Position numbers and translations under genes: made by a program
In this document: piece by piece, positions 47,311 to 53,424 of the stretch
Position numbering within the stretch: position 1 is the first letter of the stretch
Layout: each line of letters begins with the position of its first letter
Source of the DNA: Candidatus Spongiisociaceae bacterium
Lineage (GTDB): Bacteria > Actinomycetota > Acidimicrobiia > Spongiisociales > Spongiisociaceae
Reading direction: 5' to 3'
Length of the DNA stretch: 64,000 nucleotides
Assembly: GCA_965262915.1 (NCBI GenBank)
Contig: OZ253564.1
Span: 2,208,001-2,272,000, forward strand
The notes under the pieces: generated by a model
What the model saw: the letters and a program-made list of their open reading frames with translations, nothing else
What the model was told of the DNA's origin: nothing
Databases searched by the model: none

Positions 47311-48594
47311 TCACGGGGCAGGGCCGTCGCGGGGGTGGGTTTGGTAGCCGTCGGGGGTTCGTCGGACTACGAGGTTGCTGGTTTCGAGCCATTTGTGGTG
47401 GCGGCGGCAGGCGGCGACGAGGTTGGCGATGTCGGTGCGTCCTCGGTCGCGATGCCATTCCTCCATGTGGTGGAGTTCGCATCGGTGCATGGGAGCGCAG
47501 CATTCGAAACATCCCCCGTCCCTAACGGTCACCGCCAGGCGTTGGGCGGCGTTCGCCAGGCGCTGCTTGCGGCCTAGCCAAAGGGGACGGCCCATCCGGT
47601 CGAAGACCATCCCCGCCAACTCGGTGTCCGGGCTGAGCGTTTCGAGTATCCGGCGGGGTACGGGGCCGACTCCGACGATCTCGCAGTGCCCGTTGGGGTT
47701 GGTGCCGTCGACCACGCCGTACGGAGCGACGAGGATGACCTGGGTGGAGGCCTTGGCCTTCACGCCAACGGTCTCGCCTATGAACTCGCCGGTGACCGCA
47801 TCGCGGTTGGTGAGCAACTCGAACACCACATCAACGAGACGCTGCTTCGGGGTACGGATTTCATCCGGGTCGCGGTCGTCGGCGCCGTCTCGGCGTAGGT
47901 GACGCATGTAGTGGCTGTCCACGGCTTGGCGGACGTGTTCGAGCTGGGGGCCGGGGAGTTTGGCCATGAGCACTCCGAGCCCTGTGTCCTTCTCCACCCA
48001 GAGTTTGGCTTCTCGGGCCCGCCGCTGACGTTCGAGAGGGTCTACGCCCGCTTCGATCAGCTTCTGGTTGGACCATTTCCGGGTGTGCCGGTCGAAGCTA
48101 TCGGGCAGGAGTTGGTCGGCAGCCTCGATCAGGCTGTCGTCGGCTTCCACAGCTTCGGGACCGACCTTCTCCGCGGCGTTTGCGAGAGCGTTGACGTGAT
48201 CTGCGGTGATTTCACCGGTCGCGAACCGCTCCCTGACTTTGGGCATTTCCGAGAGCTGGCGTGCTACCTTGGCTATCCGCTTGGATTCGCGCCCGGGTAG
48301 CCGCGCTCCCTGCCGCAATACCTCCGCCGGGTCGGTGTCGGAGTCCGAAGCAGACACCTGGCGGGTCACATCGCACATCAGGGACGTGACCACCGATTGC
48401 ATCTGGCCTAACAACCCGAGAGTCCGGTCTGCGTCGGGCCGGGACATCGGACCGATCTCGACTTGGTTCAACTCCCCGAGCGCGGCAGTGATCCGATCGG
48501 CTGGGTCGCTGTGGGAGCCATTCGACGCCTCGAGGGTTGCGCCGCCGACGCCGACGCTGTCTCCGAAGAGAGCGAACACATGTTCGTTGTCCAT
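47311..48594 (-). CDS. DUF222 / HNH endonuclease (13E12-repeat-like)
   Basis: PLWLGRKQRLA..QRLAVTVRDGGC..C..CELHH..W..GRTDIANL..CRRHH. Confidence 0.9.
   Translation of the reverse strand: MDNEHVFALFGDSVGVGGATLEASNGSHSDPADRITAALGELNQVEIGPMSRPDADRTLGLLGQMQSVVTSLMCDVTRQVSASDSDTDPAEVLRQGARLPGRESKRIAKVARQLSEMPKVRERFATGEITADHVNALANAAEKVGPEAVEADDSLIEAADQLLPDSFDRHTRKWSNQKLIEAGVDPLERQRRAREAKLWVEKDTGLGVLMAKLPGPQLEHVRQAVDSHYMRHLRRDGADDRDPDEIRTPKQRLVDVVFELLTNRDAVTGEFIGETVGVKAKASTQVILVAPYGVVDGTNPNGHCEIVGVGPVPRRILETLSPDTELAGMVFDRMGRPLWLGRKQRLANAAQRLAVTVRDGGCFECCAPMHRCELHHMEEWHRDRGRTDIANLVAACRRHHKWLETSNLVVRRTPDGYQTHPRDGPAP
48573..48586. promoter_or_regulatory. LexA SOS box inside the 5' end of the DUF222/HNH gene
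   Basis: CGAAC-ACAT-GTTCG. Confidence 0.8.
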
Positions 48595-48600
48595 GATGTA

Positions 48601-48630
48601 GTTATACCAAACGCCTGTGACAAATGTCAA
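48601..48630 (-). promoter_or_regulatory. Sigma-A-type promoter, probably leaderless
   Basis: TTGACA-N18-TATAAC with extended -10 TG; 6 nt to the ATG at 48594. Confidence 0.7.
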
Positions 48631-48692
48631 CCCCTACATATCGGCAACCTATAATATCAGTGATCAAGAACTGACCAATTGAATCCGCATAC

Positions 48693-48863
48693 TCAATCGG
48701 TGTTTGTCATGTTCGCGGTGGGATCTGCTGGTTTGAACCGGCCACCGAACCGTCGGGTGCCTTCTCCGCTGCGAGCATCGAAGCCGCGAGCCTGGTTGCG
48801 GTAGGTGCCGGCCCACAGCGACTGGGCCTCGACGCGAGCTACCGAATCGTGGGTCGGAACCAC
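48693..48863 (-). pseudogene. Truncated RES-domain toxin
   Basis: Manual translation ...TYRNQARGFDARSGEGTRRFGGRFKP then stop after 56 aa; follows the Xre/MbcA antitoxin. Confidence 0.7.
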
Positions 48864-48868
48864 TCATC

Positions 48869-49204
48869 TCAGGCAGTAACGCCCTCACCGACGGCCAGAA
48901 ACAGATCGATCACGCGCTTGTAGTGGCCGGCAGCGACCAGATCGAGGGGCTTCTCGTAACCGAGATCGCGGTTGGGGGAACGCATCCAGAACCGTGCAGC
49001 GTCGTCGCGCATGACGCGGCGGGTAAGGTCGATCACCGCCCGGAGCTCGAGTAGCCGCTCTTCGGCGTGGCGGCGAGGAGCTGTTTCCTGGGAGCGCCAA
49101 CGGGCGACGCTGCGCGGGTTGGTCTCGCTAACCCGCGCCAGGTCGGCGGTGTCGACGACACGTCCTTCGTAGAGGTGATCCAGAAGAGTTGCGAGGGCCC
49201 TCAT
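48869..49204 (-). CDS. Xre/MbcA/ParS family antitoxin
   Basis: HTH plus WMRSPNRDLGYEKPLDL toxin-binding motif; GGAGG RBS. Confidence 0.88.
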   Translation of the reverse strand: MRALATLLDHLYEGRVVDTADLARVSETNPRSVARWRSQETAPRRHAEERLLELRAVIDLTRRVMRDDAARFWMRSPNRDLGYEKPLDLVAAGHYKRVIDLFLAVGEGVTA

Positions 49205-49301
49205 GTGCGATCGTCCTCCTAGGGTGTAGTAGCACGTCGTGTATTTGTCGTCCTATACGTCCCCAACAAGGTAAAGGGGCTCATCGATGCTCCTATGGTT
49301 G

Positions 49302-50531
49302 TCAAATCGATGATGGGGCGGTTTGGTGGGTGTGCAGCCAGTTCTGGTATCGGGTGGCGAGGTGGTGGTTGTGGTCTCGGCCGTGTTCGAGTGCTGAGAT
49401 GCGATTGGGGTGGGTTCCGACGGCTTGGGCGGTCTGGGTGAGGGTGATGCCGCGTTGTTGGCGTCGGGTGCGTAGGCGGGCGCAGTTCGGGGTTGGGTGC
49501 GGGTTGGTGAGGAGCCGGTAGATTTCTCGGGCGATGTGCCGCTTGAGGCAGCGGATGATCTCCTTTTTCTTCTTGCCCTCGGCCTTGCGTCGTGCCACGT
49601 AGGCTTTGGTGGCGGCGTCGGTGCGCATCCGGGTGGTAGCGATCCGCCATAGCGCGTTGTTGGCTTGGCGGTTGCCGCCCCGGTTGAGACGATGCCGAAG
49701 GGTTCGTCCTGATGACGCCTGGACGGGGCTGGCGCCGCACAGCGCCGCGAAAGACCGTTCCGATTTCATTCGCTTGGGGTTGTCGCCGGCGGCGACCAAC
49801 AACGCGGCGGCTGTGTCAGGACCGACACCTTCTGTGGCCAGCAGGGCCGGGTTGGCCTGGGCGCAGAGACGCCGGATCTCGGCTTCGAGTTGGGCGATCT
49901 CTACGTCGAGAGCCTGATACCGGCGGGCCAAATGCTGTAGGGCACGCTTCGCATACGCGGTGGTGGTGTGGTCTGTGCCGGGTCGGAACCGGGCACAGGT
50001 TTTGACCCGTGCTTTGAGATTCATGCCCTTTAGCTGGTGTTTTAGCGGCTCGGGAGCTGTTACGACCAGCGCATGTATCTGGTTAGCGGCCTGGGTGCGG
50101 GCCTTGACCGCGGAGCGGCGCACCACCCACAGCATCCGTATGCACTCGACCGGGCCCACACCGGACTTGGGAACCGCGGTTGCTTCGCCCGAGGCAGCTG
50201 CCCGAGCTGCCGCCTCGGCGTCGACGCTGTCGGTCTTGCCGCCCTTCTGGCGGCGTAGTTGGCGGTTGGGGCGGTTGACCTCCACCACCTCGATGTTCAT
50301 CTCGGTCAGGTAACGGGCCAGGCCGGCGCCGTAACTACCCGTTCCTTCCACCCCAACCCGAACCAACTGTCCCCGCGACTCGAACCAGGTGACCATTCGC
50401 CGATAACCGGATTCCTCCACCGCGAAAGACTCCGATCCCAGTACCCGCCCGACGCCATCCACCACCGCTGCTACGTGGACGTCCCGATGGGTGTCAACCC
50501 CACCGTAGATAATCTGGTCTGCTTCTCCCAT
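49302..50531 (-). CDS. IS110 family recombinase with C-terminal XRE-like HTH
   Basis: DEDD residues (GVDTH, GVEGTG, KTDSVDA), EGVGP, ASSG serine, RGGNRQAN; GAGGAG RBS. Confidence 0.95.
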   Translation of the reverse strand: MGEADQIIYGGVDTHRDVHVAAVVDGVGRVLGSESFAVEESGYRRMVTWFESRGQLVRVGVEGTGSYGAGLARYLTEMNIEVVEVNRPNRQLRRQKGGKTDSVDAEAAARAAASGEATAVPKSGVGPVECIRMLWVVRRSAVKARTQAANQIHALVVTAPEPLKHQLKGMNLKARVKTCARFRPGTDHTTTAYAKRALQHLARRYQALDVEIAQLEAEIRRLCAQANPALLATEGVGPDTAAALLVAAGDNPKRMKSERSFAALCGASPVQASSGRTLRHRLNRGGNRQANNALWRIATTRMRTDAATKAYVARRKAEGKKKKEIIRCLKRHIAREIYRLLTNPHPTPNCARLRTRRQQRGITLTQTAQAVGTHPNRISALEHGRDHNHHLATRYQNWLHTHQTAPSSI

Positions 50532-50559
50532 GATGCTCTTCTCCTCTAGGGGATAGAAT

Positions 50560-50748
50560 CATTTCCGATCCCCGGACCCGTGTGCGGTTGGACAGGCCAC
50601 TCACGGTGGAGAAGTTGAAGGCTCCTATTAGGTCACATCCGCCCCGGGTCACGGGCGTCACGCCCCAGGCCGGGAACGGGCCGACAGATCGATGAAAAGG
50701 CACAAGGCCAGATTTCAGTTGGGTCAGACCCGCCCTAGCCCAGGAACC
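50560..50748 (-). ncRNA. Putative bridge RNA of the IS110 element
   Basis: Two loops, each with two guide-like segments matching the target (ACTGAAATC, TCATCG) and donor (ATAGGAGC, TGAGTG); ends approximate. Confidence 0.75.
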
Positions 50749-50767
50749 CTCCAATTATGAGTGGATT

Positions 50768-52049
50768 TCAGTGGGGAGTGACGGTGGCCAATAGGTCCCA
50801 GTTGGGTTTCCCGGCGTAGAGAAGGGCGCGGATTCGGTAGTTCGCGAAGTTGGGTAACCCGAACGCTGCTCGTTTGATCCGTTTGATTAGGTTGTTGAGG
50901 GCTTCGGTGGGTCCGTTGGTTACCTTCGAGATGTGCCAGTTGGTGATCTGGGGGGTCCAGCGGGCGATGGTACGTCCGAGCTTGTTGATCTCGGGTGGGC
51001 AGGATTCGTCCTGGAGGTCGTCTGCGAGCCCGAGGGTGTATCGGAGAGCAAGGACCGGACTTTCGATCCCGTAGATGCCTCGTACCGTTTCGGTTGCGTG
51101 CCAGGCGGTGCGTACCTCGCCGTGGGGGTCACCGGCATCGAGGAGACCACGCAGCCGTGTTTGACCGCGGTCGCTGATCCTCTCATGGGCGGCGGTGAGG
51201 AGGCGGCGTATCCGATACAGCGGGTCATCCTTGCGGCCTCGATGCCCGAGGGTTTCGTTCTGGGTGCGGCGTCGTACTTCGTCGAGTCGCTGGTTGGCCA
51301 AGCGGATGACGTGGAAGGGGTCTGCTACCTGCACAGCGTTCGGCAACACCCTGTCGTACGCCTTCCGATAAGGCCCTGACATGACCCGACACCGCCCAGC
51401 GGATCCCGTCGAGCCACTCGGGGGGCTGTGACCGGAACCACGACACCGCGCTATCAGCCGTTCTACCACCGACTATGTCGAACCGGCTGGTGGCCTCCCA
51501 CATCGACGACAGAAGTGCACCAAACCTTGGTGCGCCACCGGCCTTTCCGCCAGAACAACGCGTCTCGTCGATGCCCACAGCTCCGACCTCGCCTATCCGA
51601 TCGGTGTCGGCCCCCAGGAGTGCATCGCCCCAGCGGACGACCTCATTGTTCACCGTATGCCAATCACAACCCAACTCCGAGGCGACCTCGTCGACCGAAC
51701 GGCCCCGCCCACCCACCCCGACGGTCACCCACCGGGCCGCTCTCGATGTCAACAACGCCCGTTCGGGACCAATCGTGGGGTCTTGTTCGATGAACGATCT
51801 GATCTCACAGTCGGGGTTCGGGCACGTCCAACGGCGTTTCCGCCACCGCAGCCGAACCGGACGGCCGAACGCCGGTAGATCCACCAACACAACCGTTCTG
51901 TGACCCTTGGACCACACCGGGCCACCACACGCCACACACAACGGGCGGGCCTTGCGGGACCCGATCACCACCCCAAGCGGTGCACCCTCGCCCGAGTCGT
52001 TGATCCCTACCAGATCAACGTCGCCCAGGCCTACCAACAACTCGCACAT
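50768..52049 (-). pseudogene. ISL3 transposase with multiple frameshifts
   Basis: MCELLVGL, DLPAFGRPVRLRWRKRRWTC, GIDET in one frame; DPFHVI, TNGPTEALNNLIKRIKR in another. Confidence 0.9.
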
Positions 52050-52461
52050 GCGCGCAGGGATCAGCTTCCACAGGGGTCCTCCTGCCTCGGATGTCTTTTC
52101 TCAGCACCCGATTATGGAGGACCCCCCATCACTTCTGGTGGATTACCACTCCCCCTAGCAGATCCCCGACTCCCCACTCATTTCCGAAGAGCCGGTAAAG
52201 GGGGACATGCACGGTTGGGGGCGGAGCGGCCATCTCTAACCTTTTCCCAGTAGCTGGCCGGGCCCACTCAGTAGAATCGGTCCTGACCTCGCGGATGCTT
52301 CGGTAGCGACTGGAATCATGCCGGAACAACCAGTAGCCACGACGGGGCTCTGGCTCGTTCATTGACATAGATCCGAGTGAAGACCAGCCGCCGCCGCCAT
52401 CGCCAATAGACTGACCGGACAATCATGGGAACTTCGGAGGAGCGCGGTGCGTCCAAGTTGT

Positions 52462-53424
52462 ATGAAGAGAACTAACGCACAACCCAACCCGATAAGCCGG
52501 CTTGCCGCGAGCGTTCTCGCCGTGGCCGGTGTAATGGCCCTCGCAGCGTGCTTCGGCGGCAACGACAGCGAAGAGAGAGCGCCGGCGACCACCGCCGCGA
52601 TGGCTGTCGTATCCATGAAGGAGGACGATGCGGGATTCGTCGTCACGGGCGAAGACCGGCTGGAGCAGTATTCGAGCGGCGGGTTCGACATCGGGGTCAT
52701 CGGGCGCGATGTCATCATCGAGATGCGGGTCCTGGTCAGCAGCGACAACATCCAACGTACGGTCGCATCGATCATGGCCAACGTATCGGCGTTAGGTGGT
52801 GGTGTCGCCTACTCGAACATCGACTACGGCGACCGGACCGACGGCCACGACGACGGTTTTGCCATGCTCGTGGTGAAGGTTCCACCTGGAGGCATCGACC
52901 AGTTGCTGGCTGGACTCGACGACACCGGCACCGTGCATTCGATCAGCCAGAGTGCGCAAGATGTCACCGAGCAATTGGTAGATCTCGACGTCAGGATCAG
53001 GAACGTACGGGAAAGTGTCGCAAACGTTCGAGAGTTCATGGATCGCACCGAGAACCTCAAAGATCTCGTGGTTCTGGAGGGAGAATTGACCCGCCGCCAG
53101 ACCGACCTCGAACGACTCGAGGCACAGCAGCGCAATCTCAGCGACCGGGTTGCACTATCGACCGTGACGATCGACATCGTGCCGGCCGCTTCGGTGGGCG
53201 GGGAGGACTCCGACACGATCGGTGATGCCTTCAGTACCGGTTGGGACGTCTTCGTCGCAGTTCTCTACAGGACCGGTTTCGTGCTCGCGGTGCTCGCTCC
53301 GTTCCTTGTCGTCGCAGCGCTGGTGGCACTCCTCGTGAGGTTCGTGGTGCGCCGCCGCAGGGCCACGACCGGAACCGCACCCCCAACACCCCCCGCGGTC
53401 GAACGGACTGAGGAGTCCGGTTAG
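52462..53424 (+). CDS. DUF4349 domain lipoprotein
   Basis: Lipobox LAAC, QDVTEQLVDLDVRI coiled coil, VALSTVTI, C-terminal TM. Confidence 0.85.
   Translation: MKRTNAQPNPISRLAASVLAVAGVMALAACFGGNDSEERAPATTAAMAVVSMKEDDAGFVVTGEDRLEQYSSGGFDIGVIGRDVIIEMRVLVSSDNIQRTVASIMANVSALGGGVAYSNIDYGDRTDGHDDGFAMLVVKVPPGGIDQLLAGLDDTGTVHSISQSAQDVTEQLVDLDVRIRNVRESVANVREFMDRTENLKDLVVLEGELTRRQTDLERLEAQQRNLSDRVALSTVTIDIVPAASVGGEDSDTIGDAFSTGWDVFVAVLYRTGFVLAVLAPFLVVAALVALLVRFVVRRRRATTGTAPPTPPAVERTEESG

Follow-up and report, generated by a model that had tools for sequence, protein, structure and literature searches.

An IS110-group insertion sequence with a predicted bridge RNA whose target guides match the right terminal repeat of ISL3 elements in a Candidatus Spongiisociaceae genome

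We analyzed a 64,000-nucleotide stretch (hereafter the window) from the genome of a Candidatus Spongiisociaceae bacterium (Acidimicrobiia; GenBank assembly GCA_965262915.1, contig OZ253564.1, positions 2,208,001 to 2,272,000). The genome comprises 5.06 Mb in one contig and has a G+C content of 64%. The subject of this study is a minus-strand block at 50763..49287 of the window, an IS110-group insertion sequence of 1477 bp (a size bounded by its flanks) that interrupts an ISL3 insertion sequence. On the minus strand from 51000 to 49100, the order is the 3' end of the ISL3 transposase gene, the 1477-bp block, CGATGAGCC and CCTTTACC. At each junction, one C is common to the element and the target. 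A BLAST search of the genome with the element identified nine copies that were 99.1-100% identical, seven full-length copies with ~81% identity and many more distant ones; the nine close copies, together with empty target sites, fixed the termini at 50763/49287. The left end of the element is non-coding and long (232 nt, 50763-50532), the right end is only 15 nt (49301-49287), and long terminal inverted repeats are absent.

The element contains a single long open reading frame (ORF), which encodes a recombinase of 409 aa. It consists of a RuvC-like domain (DEDD_Tnp_IS110, PF01548, 1.2e-23, aa 11-156), a domain of the catalytic serine (Transposase_20, PF02371, 1.7e-19, aa 230-312) and a C-terminal tail that matches HTH_31 (PF13560, 3.6e-06) and HTH_3 (1.7e-05) at aa 351-386. 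The best match in the Protein Data Bank was the IS621 transposase 8wt6 (chain 8wt6_A; phmmer E 9.5e-12). Residues D13, E62, D101, D104 and S274 align with D11, E60, D102, D105 and S241 of IS621 (the chain numbering is offset by two), whose catalytic roles have been described (Hiraizumi 2024, PMC11208158).

The host of this element is an ISL3 copy whose transposase is related to DDE_Tnp_ISL3 (PF01610, 5e-41) and also matches Zn_ribbon_ISL3 and HTH_Tnp_ISL3 (PF14690, PF13542). The zinc ribbon and HTH are located in one ORF and the DDE domain in the other; the split of the transposase over two overlapping ORFs points to a frameshift in that copy. When the IS110 block was removed, the two 25-bp ISL3 terminal inverted repeats agreed at 21/25 positions, the left repeat, GGCTCTTCGGAAATGAGTGGGGAGT, starting at 52193. 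An 8-bp direct repeat, CCTTTACC, flanks the entire ISL3 (52201-52194 and 49277-49270). Members of the ISL3 family typically have GGCTC ends and generate an 8-bp target duplication. The IS110 element lies within the right inverted repeat, 9 bp from its tip, and has the same orientation as the ISL3 transposase gene; it begins 5 bp past the stop codon of that gene and leaves the ISL3 ORF uninterrupted. Since the last 9 bp of the right repeat are split off, this ISL3 copy should be disabled.

The non-coding left end of the IS110 element houses four guide segments in two stem-closed internal loops (Table 1), in the order left target guide (LTG), right target guide (RTG), left donor guide (LDG) and right donor guide (RDG). 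The closing stem of the first, target-binding loop is formed by GGGCGGGTCTGAC (50735-23) with GTCGGCCCGTTCCC (50685-72), and the loop contains an inner hairpin consisting of GGC (50709-07), cttgt and GCC (50701-699). The RTG pairs with the right flank at 6/6 positions, and at 8/8 when the AT that terminates the element is counted. In the second, donor-binding loop, the RDG core TGAGTG (50603-598) pairs with CACTCA at 50763-58, and an extra G (50597) pairs with the C at 50764. These strings and their coordinates had been listed in an initial annotation of this DNA made from the letters only, and all were correct when the window was read again; RTG and RDG had been placed at the right positions, but their lengths were too short, the full segments being TCATCGAT and TGAGTGG. 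The same annotation recognized the guide order as the layout of IS621, in agreement with Durrant 2024 (PMC11208160). When the 226-nt leader was subjected to 20,000 mononucleotide shuffles, all four guides jointly were recovered in none of them (0/20,000). Taken singly, the left-flank 9-mer appeared in 14 shuffles, the right-end 8-mer in 40, and the two 6-mers in 985 and 1170.

Table 1. Features of the IS110 element, its predicted bridge RNA and the host ISL3, with positions in the window.
Feature	Position	Strand	Description	Basis
Host ISL3, main part	50764..52193	-	transposase in two overlapping ORFs, 52049-51225 and 51469-50768	Pfam, repeats
Left half of target	50764..50772	-	ACTGAAATC; includes the ISL3 transposase stop codon, TGA (50770-50768)	read from sequence
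-10-like box, left end	50754..50759	-	CATAAT; forms a 17-nt-spaced sigma-70-like promoter with TTGACA only when ends are joined	
Predicted bridge RNA body	50584..50745	-		5' end inferred from -10 box, 3' end from end of donor-loop stem
Target-binding loop, closing stem and inner hairpin	50672..50735	-		RNAalifold, pair counts
LTG	50711..50719	-	ACTGAAATC; same sense as left flank 50772-50764, 9/9	
RTG	50688..50695	-	TCATCG plus constant AT, TCATCGAT; complement of CGATGA (49286-49281)	
Donor-binding loop and closing stem	50584..50642	-	stem 50642-32 with 50593-84	covariance helix 4
LDG	50621..50628	-	ATAGGAGC; same sense as element right end 49296-49289, 8/8	
RDG	50597..50603	-	TGAGTGG; complement of C+CACTCA at left junction, 7/7	
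Recombinase gene, 409 aa	49302..50531	-	DEDD, Transposase_20 (Ser) and C-terminal HTH_31/HTH_3	Pfam, PDB alignment
-35-like box, right end	49300..49305	-	TTGACA; overlaps recombinase stop codon	read from sequence
Right half of target	49281..49286	-	CGATGA; then GCC (49280-49278), tip of ISL3 right repeat	
Last 9 bp of ISL3 right repeat	49278..49286	-	severed from the rest by IS110 insertion	read from sequence

We then compared the guides of all recognizable copies of the element in the genome. Target loops were located with a regular expression for the invariant loop scaffold, which found 31 loops, 30 of which were parsed, and the 30 parsed copies represented 7 guide classes. Seventeen copies carry the guides of the window element, and 16 of them are inserted at one and the same base of an ISL3 right repeat. 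In the remaining six classes the 9-nt LTGs and 6-nt RTGs differ, and each class fits its own flanks. Across the 30 copies, the LTG agreed with its own flank at 9/9 positions in 24 copies, 8/9 in three, 7/9 in two and 5/9 in one; the corresponding values for the RTG (25 copies) were 6/6 in 18, 5/6 in six and 2/6 in one. In a class-by-class matrix, cognate combinations scored 13-15/15 and non-cognate combinations 4-11/15. Thus, the covariation of guides with flanks that had been suggested as a check of the initial annotation was found within this genome (7 classes), and also at 14 loci elsewhere (see below).

Uninterrupted targets were found in the genome for 5/7 classes. The empty class A/B target was present as ACTGAAATCCGATGA, or with the ending ...GAAGA, at 12 + 4 ISL3 ends, which bears out the natural target that had been named for this element: it is uninterrupted at 16 other ISL3 ends. 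Empty sites of other classes were CGCGAAAACGTGGG (n=3), GGTGAAATCCTTGG (n=6), CCGGGAAACCCGGGG (n=9) and CCTCGTAACATGAC (n=2). A pattern count of the full class-A target revealed 16 occupied and 16 empty ISL3 ends. The further proposals that the guides do not fit the left ISL3 repeat and that only the right one is used also held: the best placement of the 15-bp target in the left repeat reached 11/15, and 16/16 ISL3-borne copies with these guides are in the right repeat. In addition, the flanks of 16 full-length copies were largely the same, with the same ISL3 left flank in 15/16 and the same right flank in 14/16.

These copies also bear on whether the element still moves. This copy, or the whole class, could be a fossil in which the guide matches record a past insertion. 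Consistent with decay, several copies of class B (the ~81% sisters) contain frameshifts, with tblastn matches split at approximately aa 296 in four copies, and the transposase of the ISL3 host in the window is likewise split over two ORFs. However, eight copies encode an identical intact 409-aa protein with its catalytic residues preserved, and the ISL3 hosts of the close copies share only 85-94% identity with the ISL3 copy in the window; near-identical IS110 copies in such diverged hosts indicate separate, recent insertions. Moreover, the recombinase recurs at 100% identity, together with identical guides and junctions, in another assembled genome (an Acidimicrobiia metagenome-assembled genome, locus L010). 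We see only a small chance that the element is a fossil.

Several individual copies deserve mention. One intact class-B copy (source-genome coordinates, here and below prefixed G000:C1, 3665110-3663633; locus L044) is located at a non-ISL3 site that its own guides fit at only 5/9 + 2/6 positions; the same site fits the class C guides at 8/9 + 5/6 (13/15). This copy could have been guided in trans by the RNA of another class, or could represent an off-target 'half-match' insertion. Trans action is suggested in one preprint (10.64898/2026.08.14.744561) and half-match insertion is reported in another (10.64898/2026.08.31.748434). Two class-E1 copies, in which the RNA gene is split by a 1.5-kb insertion, are still found at separate cognate sites. 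Another example involves a nested array (G000:C1 ~4462320-4466852), composed of a class-D1 left end with its RNA gene, an ISL3, a class-B IS110 and the D1 coding part; the class-B IS110 is inside the right repeat of that ISL3. Two of the three class C elements (regions of G000:C1 715372 and 1730357) interrupt a different IS110-family transposase gene in its 3' portion (Transposase_20 4.6e-22; L045:288-1106, minus). One class-A copy (G000:C1 4175386-4176836) has a 3' end 25 bp short, cut by an ISL3 in the opposite orientation, so ISL3 lands in IS110 too. We also considered a swapped-in RNA module common to classes A and B; this was dropped, the leader being 88-89% and the coding region 79% identical, which is not striking.

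Comparison of empty and occupied sites revealed that, whatever the class, one C occurs at both junctions. This shared C was always preceded by T at the right, donor-derived junction; at the left junction the preceding base was the target's own, which may be C, A or T. If the core consists of two bases, as in IS621, the donor core would be TC and the target core NC. All RTGs terminate in GAT, which pairs with the donor-type ATC (7/7 classes), and the target-type core base occurs in the LTG and, for 5/7 classes, in the RDG. According to the handshake rule, bases 3' of RTG and RDG pair with non-cognate DNA (Hiraizumi 2024, PMC11208158). This rule is obeyed at the RTG, where the following base is complementary to the A of the donor rather than to the T of the target. 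The LTG 9-mer stops one base short of the shared C in classes A/B, D1 and E2 and includes it in classes C, D2, E1 and E3; the base that follows the 9-mer is always U and could wobble-pair opposite the partner of C. A 14-bp target with a single C, ACTGAAATCGATGA, which would follow the strict IS621 scheme (7+2+5), was not accepted as the regular site, since two Cs are found at 16 empty ISL3 ends and a single C at only 1.

We further checked the occurrence of the element outside this genome. Matches of the recombinase protein (E up to 1e-40) were detected in 88/301 sampled genomes of the same order, a tally that includes the window's own genome and the unpublished genomes G004 and G196. In addition to L010, a relative with 82% identity was found in a Candidatus Spongiisociaceae genome. 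Among 29 external loci examined, 14 were parsed by an anchor-based parser and 15 were unparsed. Together with the 7 classes described above, these 14 loci gave 21 entries with 20 unique guide sets. The cognate score averaged 13.45/15 (minimum 11) and the non-cognate score 6.17 (maximum 14), and the cognate sum of 269/300 was reached by 0/20,000 permutations. These are the automatic numbers, which were kept although at locus L014 the parser took a wrong right end (3/6, versus 6/6 by eye). At locus L016 (genome G190), both the right end and the LDG are ATAGAAGC instead of ATAGGAGC, showing co-variation on the donor side as well. At least 8000 relatives were present in the protein database, and the best 120 of these were 69-100% identical and almost all metagenome proteins. 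The element had initially been described as an intact, likely reprogrammable RNA-guided recombinase variant. It is intact, but 'variant' says too much for an ordinary member of a large family.

Relatives near 52% identity have a different organization, with a GTCTGAC...CTGTCG loop scaffold downstream of the recombinase gene, as in the IS1111 group. It was detected by covariance-model matches in L029, L030 and L037 (E 6.8e-07 to 1.8e-12) and by eye in L031, L033, L034, L036, L038, L039 and L041.

The C-terminal tail of the recombinase is an XRE-type helix-turn-helix (window 49302-49496, aa 346-409) that is kept in all 7 guide classes and in relatives down to ~66% identity. Relatives with at least 66% identity align to residue ~401-409, indicating that the tail is retained, and those near 50% mostly end near residue 345. 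Several of the best 120 database relatives are listed with PF13560, for example P0001-P0004. This tail may bind DNA at the element ends or repress the junction promoter discussed below. A narrow search found no published description of a C-terminal HTH on IS110 recombinases, and the terms were absent from the one preprint consulted for them.

The structure of the leader was analyzed by comparison of homologs. RNAalifold (10 sequences) recovered the target-loop closing stem and the inner GGC/GCC hairpin, but it mis-folded the donor loop, and it paired the left terminus with the RDG; the donor-loop structure was instead read by eye and then tested on a larger alignment. The resulting covariance model has 25 pairs (13 in the target-loop stem, 3 in the inner hairpin and 9 in the donor-loop stem) and gave 33 matches in 39 sources. 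In these 33 sequences, 94.5% of 770 cells were standard pairs, compared with 85.6% in shuffles; changes on both sides were seen in 15/25 pairs, compared with 6.9 in shuffles; and 0/500 shuffles attained any of five measures. When the 3' partners were slid by 1-3 columns, pairing fell to 32-48%. Helices 1-2 of the target loop were 95.8% and 99.1% paired, with 8/13 pairs changed on both sides, and helix 4 of the donor loop was 86.7% paired, with 6/9 pairs changed on both sides. The target loop is variable and the donor loop nearly invariant across classes. A 5' stem-loop ahead of the target loop is absent in classes A, B and E, which do not have a ~55-nt segment, and a GC-rich hairpin occurs there in classes C and D.

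These helices bear on a rival reading, site-specific recombination at the DNA level without RNA, in which the internal copies would be att-like sites for protein binding or DNA pairing and would co-vary with targets through being read by the recombinase or in a DNA-DNA pairing step. All of our evidence is DNA sequence, the integrated state has no detected promoter, and the RNAalifold pairing of the left terminus with the RDG is expected of any model of end-to-internal complementarity. However, the loops that contain the guides are closed by helices in which pairing survives two-sided changes, a signature of a folded single strand. In addition, the guides have the same polarity as in the RNA of IS621, same-sense on the left and antisense on the right, and RNA dependence was shown for IS621 (Durrant 2024, PMC11208160). 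Finally, no added DNA-reading domain varies with the target, the same HTH tail being present in all 7 classes. Recombination without RNA therefore appears very unlikely to us.

A candidate promoter was found at the ends of the element. When the ends were joined in silico, TTGACA was followed after 17 nt by CATAAT, CATACT or CATAGT in 5/7 classes, compared with 0/7 integrated states, suggesting that a sigma-70-like promoter would be reconstituted on joining. The RNA might also arise by read-through, given that the ISL3 transposase gene and the element have the same orientation. We also looked up four RNA-type public runs for matches to 49200-50950; these are contigs, so neither ends nor strand can be read from them. 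A 154-nt contig of one sponge metatranscriptome library matches 50580-50723 without any difference (depth 3.8), which provides a weak hint of bridge RNA expression, and in another RNA-type run a contig was found inside the recombinase coding region. The possibility that the leader is mainly a cis-regulatory 5' untranslated region (an attenuator or translational control), with the guide matches secondary, fits a GGGGAT...ATCCCC hairpin directly 5' of the GAGGAG ribosome-binding site of the recombinase gene and the co-transcription of leader and gene expected from the junction promoter, but it offers no reason for 15 loop bases to track flanking DNA in 20 guide sets and is hardly credible.

Taken together, we consider the block at 50763..49287 to be an active-looking IS110-group insertion sequence that would work like IS621, with a bridge RNA, and estimate the probability of this reading at about 0.9. 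In the proposed mechanism, the element would be excised as a circle, in which the right-end TTGACA is joined to the left-end CATAAT and forms a promoter. This junction promoter would produce a bridge RNA of ~160 nt as well as the recombinase mRNA. The RNA would fold into two stem-closed internal loops and bind the recombinase. The first loop, through the LTG ACTGAAATC and RTG TCATCGAT, would read the 15-bp target ACTGAAATCCGATGA in the right inverted repeat of ISL3, and the second, through the LDG ATAGGAGC and RDG TGAGTGG, would read the element's own joined ends. The DEDD/Ser recombinase would then cleave the DNA and carry out strand exchange at the invariant C. Insertion is thereby predicted to occur 9 bp from the tip of ISL3, just past the transposase stop codon and in every case in the orientation of that gene.

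Several observations weigh against this interpretation. First, 1/17 copies with the window guides is at a site that its own guides fit at only 7/15 positions. Second, the donor (TC) and the target (CC) do not have a full common core dinucleotide, the LTG of the window's class is one base out of register with those of classes C, D2, E1 and E3, and the contiguous match of the LDG is only 8 bases, the next three (CTT versus ATC) pairing only if a mismatch and a G-U wobble are allowed. Third, the alignment was fitted to the covariance model and contains its training sequences, so the pair counts lean toward the structure; the leader folded as a single sequence does no better than shuffles (z = -1.53) and has a minimum-energy structure other than the two-loop one. 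Rfam 15 (E up to 1, 48500-52500) gave no bridge-RNA family, and its only match was a chance radC hit in the coding region. Finally, a tool scan of the integrated locus found neither a sigma-70-like promoter nor an intrinsic terminator (0 sites), and the sole RNA-library evidence for the bridge RNA is one low-depth contig, from a type of library that can hold DNA.

A second lineage of IS110-family elements was identified in the same genome. This element, designated X, is 1484 bp long, distant from the first lineage and on the opposite strand (PF01548 4.3e-35, PF02371 5.4e-09). Copies are located at G000:C1 3638544-3640027 (in L042), 4420452-4421935, 287302-288785 and ~290125-291608, with the ORF at L042:221-1441 (minus). 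Three first-lineage elements have X in their donor-binding loop, where it separates ATAG from GAGCC of the LDG and is accompanied by a 3-bp TAG duplication. A third form of X interrupts the right end (ATAGGAG/...) of a fourth first-lineage element. Its leader has a loop with two arms that fit its own flanks, and sister copies of X with 85% identity have other arms and another repeated target, CAGGTGYCAG/TAGGTGYCAGG. The guide loops of X thus look as if written against the donor-guide sequence of the first lineage. Since at least 7 guide classes have the same donor ends, the RNA of any class could move the circle of any class. It is tempting to view the genome as an interacting bridge-RNA community, with cross-mobilization, parasitism by X, and RTG and RDG preset to the recombinant junctions, an idea we hold tentatively and at appreciably less than even odds. 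If it were true, X would be a case of RNA-guided parasitism of one bridge-RNA element by another, and RTG and RDG that, throughout the family, carry the core base of the recombinant junctions and not that of the substrates would mean that the handshake principle also applies to the core, where it would favor insertion.

Beyond the ISL3, the window contains on the minus strand an ORF with an Xre/MbcA/ParS antitoxin C-terminal domain (48869-49204, 1.1e-07) and a DUF222 protein (47311-48630, 3.8e-14).

The element represents a high-GC, actinobacterial-type (Acidimicrobiia) relative of IS621 with a built-in reprogramming series. Its seven target loops on one scaffold, all with occupied and five with empty sites, may serve as a reference set from which rules for guide length, register and tolerance in the core can be derived. 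By using the inverted repeat of another insertion sequence as a landing pad, it leaves host genes untouched, and the ISL3 copy should be crippled. In a narrow search of titles and abstract openings, no published description of an IS110-family element targeting an ISL3 repeat was found.

The known mechanism is unchanged by these findings, and the unusual part is the density of evidence in one genome. Bridge RNAs have been predicted in 85.7% of catalogued IS110 elements (Durrant 2024, PMC11208160). The closest comparison is IS621 of E. coli (PMC11208160, PMC11208158). Both have a recombinase with DEDD and Ser domains, whose catalytic residues align, and both combine a long non-coding left end 5' of the gene with a very short right end. 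In both, the target-binding loop precedes the donor-binding loop, the 9-nt LTG is same-sense and the RTG antisense, and LDG and RDG are built analogously. A variable target loop, a conserved donor loop and a junction promoter have been published for IS621 and the IS110 family (Durrant 2024, PMC11208160), and their counterparts are seen here, the promoter being rebuilt at the joined ends at the sequence level; the base beside the RTG is likewise of the handshake type and pairs with the donor rather than the target. Differences from IS621 (326 aa) include a low protein identity (phmmer E 9.5e-12), a C-terminal HTH_31 tail of 60 aa that is missing from IS621, and a 15-bp target footprint (9 + 6). 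Donor (TC) and target (CC; AC or TC elsewhere among the classes) agree only at the second core base, C, and the target is the end of another insertion sequence and not a REP element. Unlike the consensus published for 103 orthologues (Durrant 2024, PMC11208160), the window's class has no 5' stem-loop, a feature that does not define the mechanism.

A mobile element as landing site also has parallels. IS4321 and IS5075, of the IS1111 branch, are said to target the inverted repeats of the Tn21 family; like them, the present element belongs to the DEDD family and inserts specifically, and in one orientation, at the terminal inverted repeat of a different mobile element. Elements of the IS1111 group have subterminal inverted repeats and a guide RNA downstream of the gene (Siddiquee 2024; Durrant 2024, PMC11208160), whereas here the predicted RNA is upstream of the gene and the host is ISL3. 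The IS110-family elements ISPpu10, ISPa11 and ISPpu9 insert in repeated extragenic palindromes, so that they, like the element described here, have a multi-copy repeat as landing site with many 'safe' sites per genome. Here, however, the repeat is the inverted repeat of a transposable element, and the number of sites therefore grows with the spread of that element.

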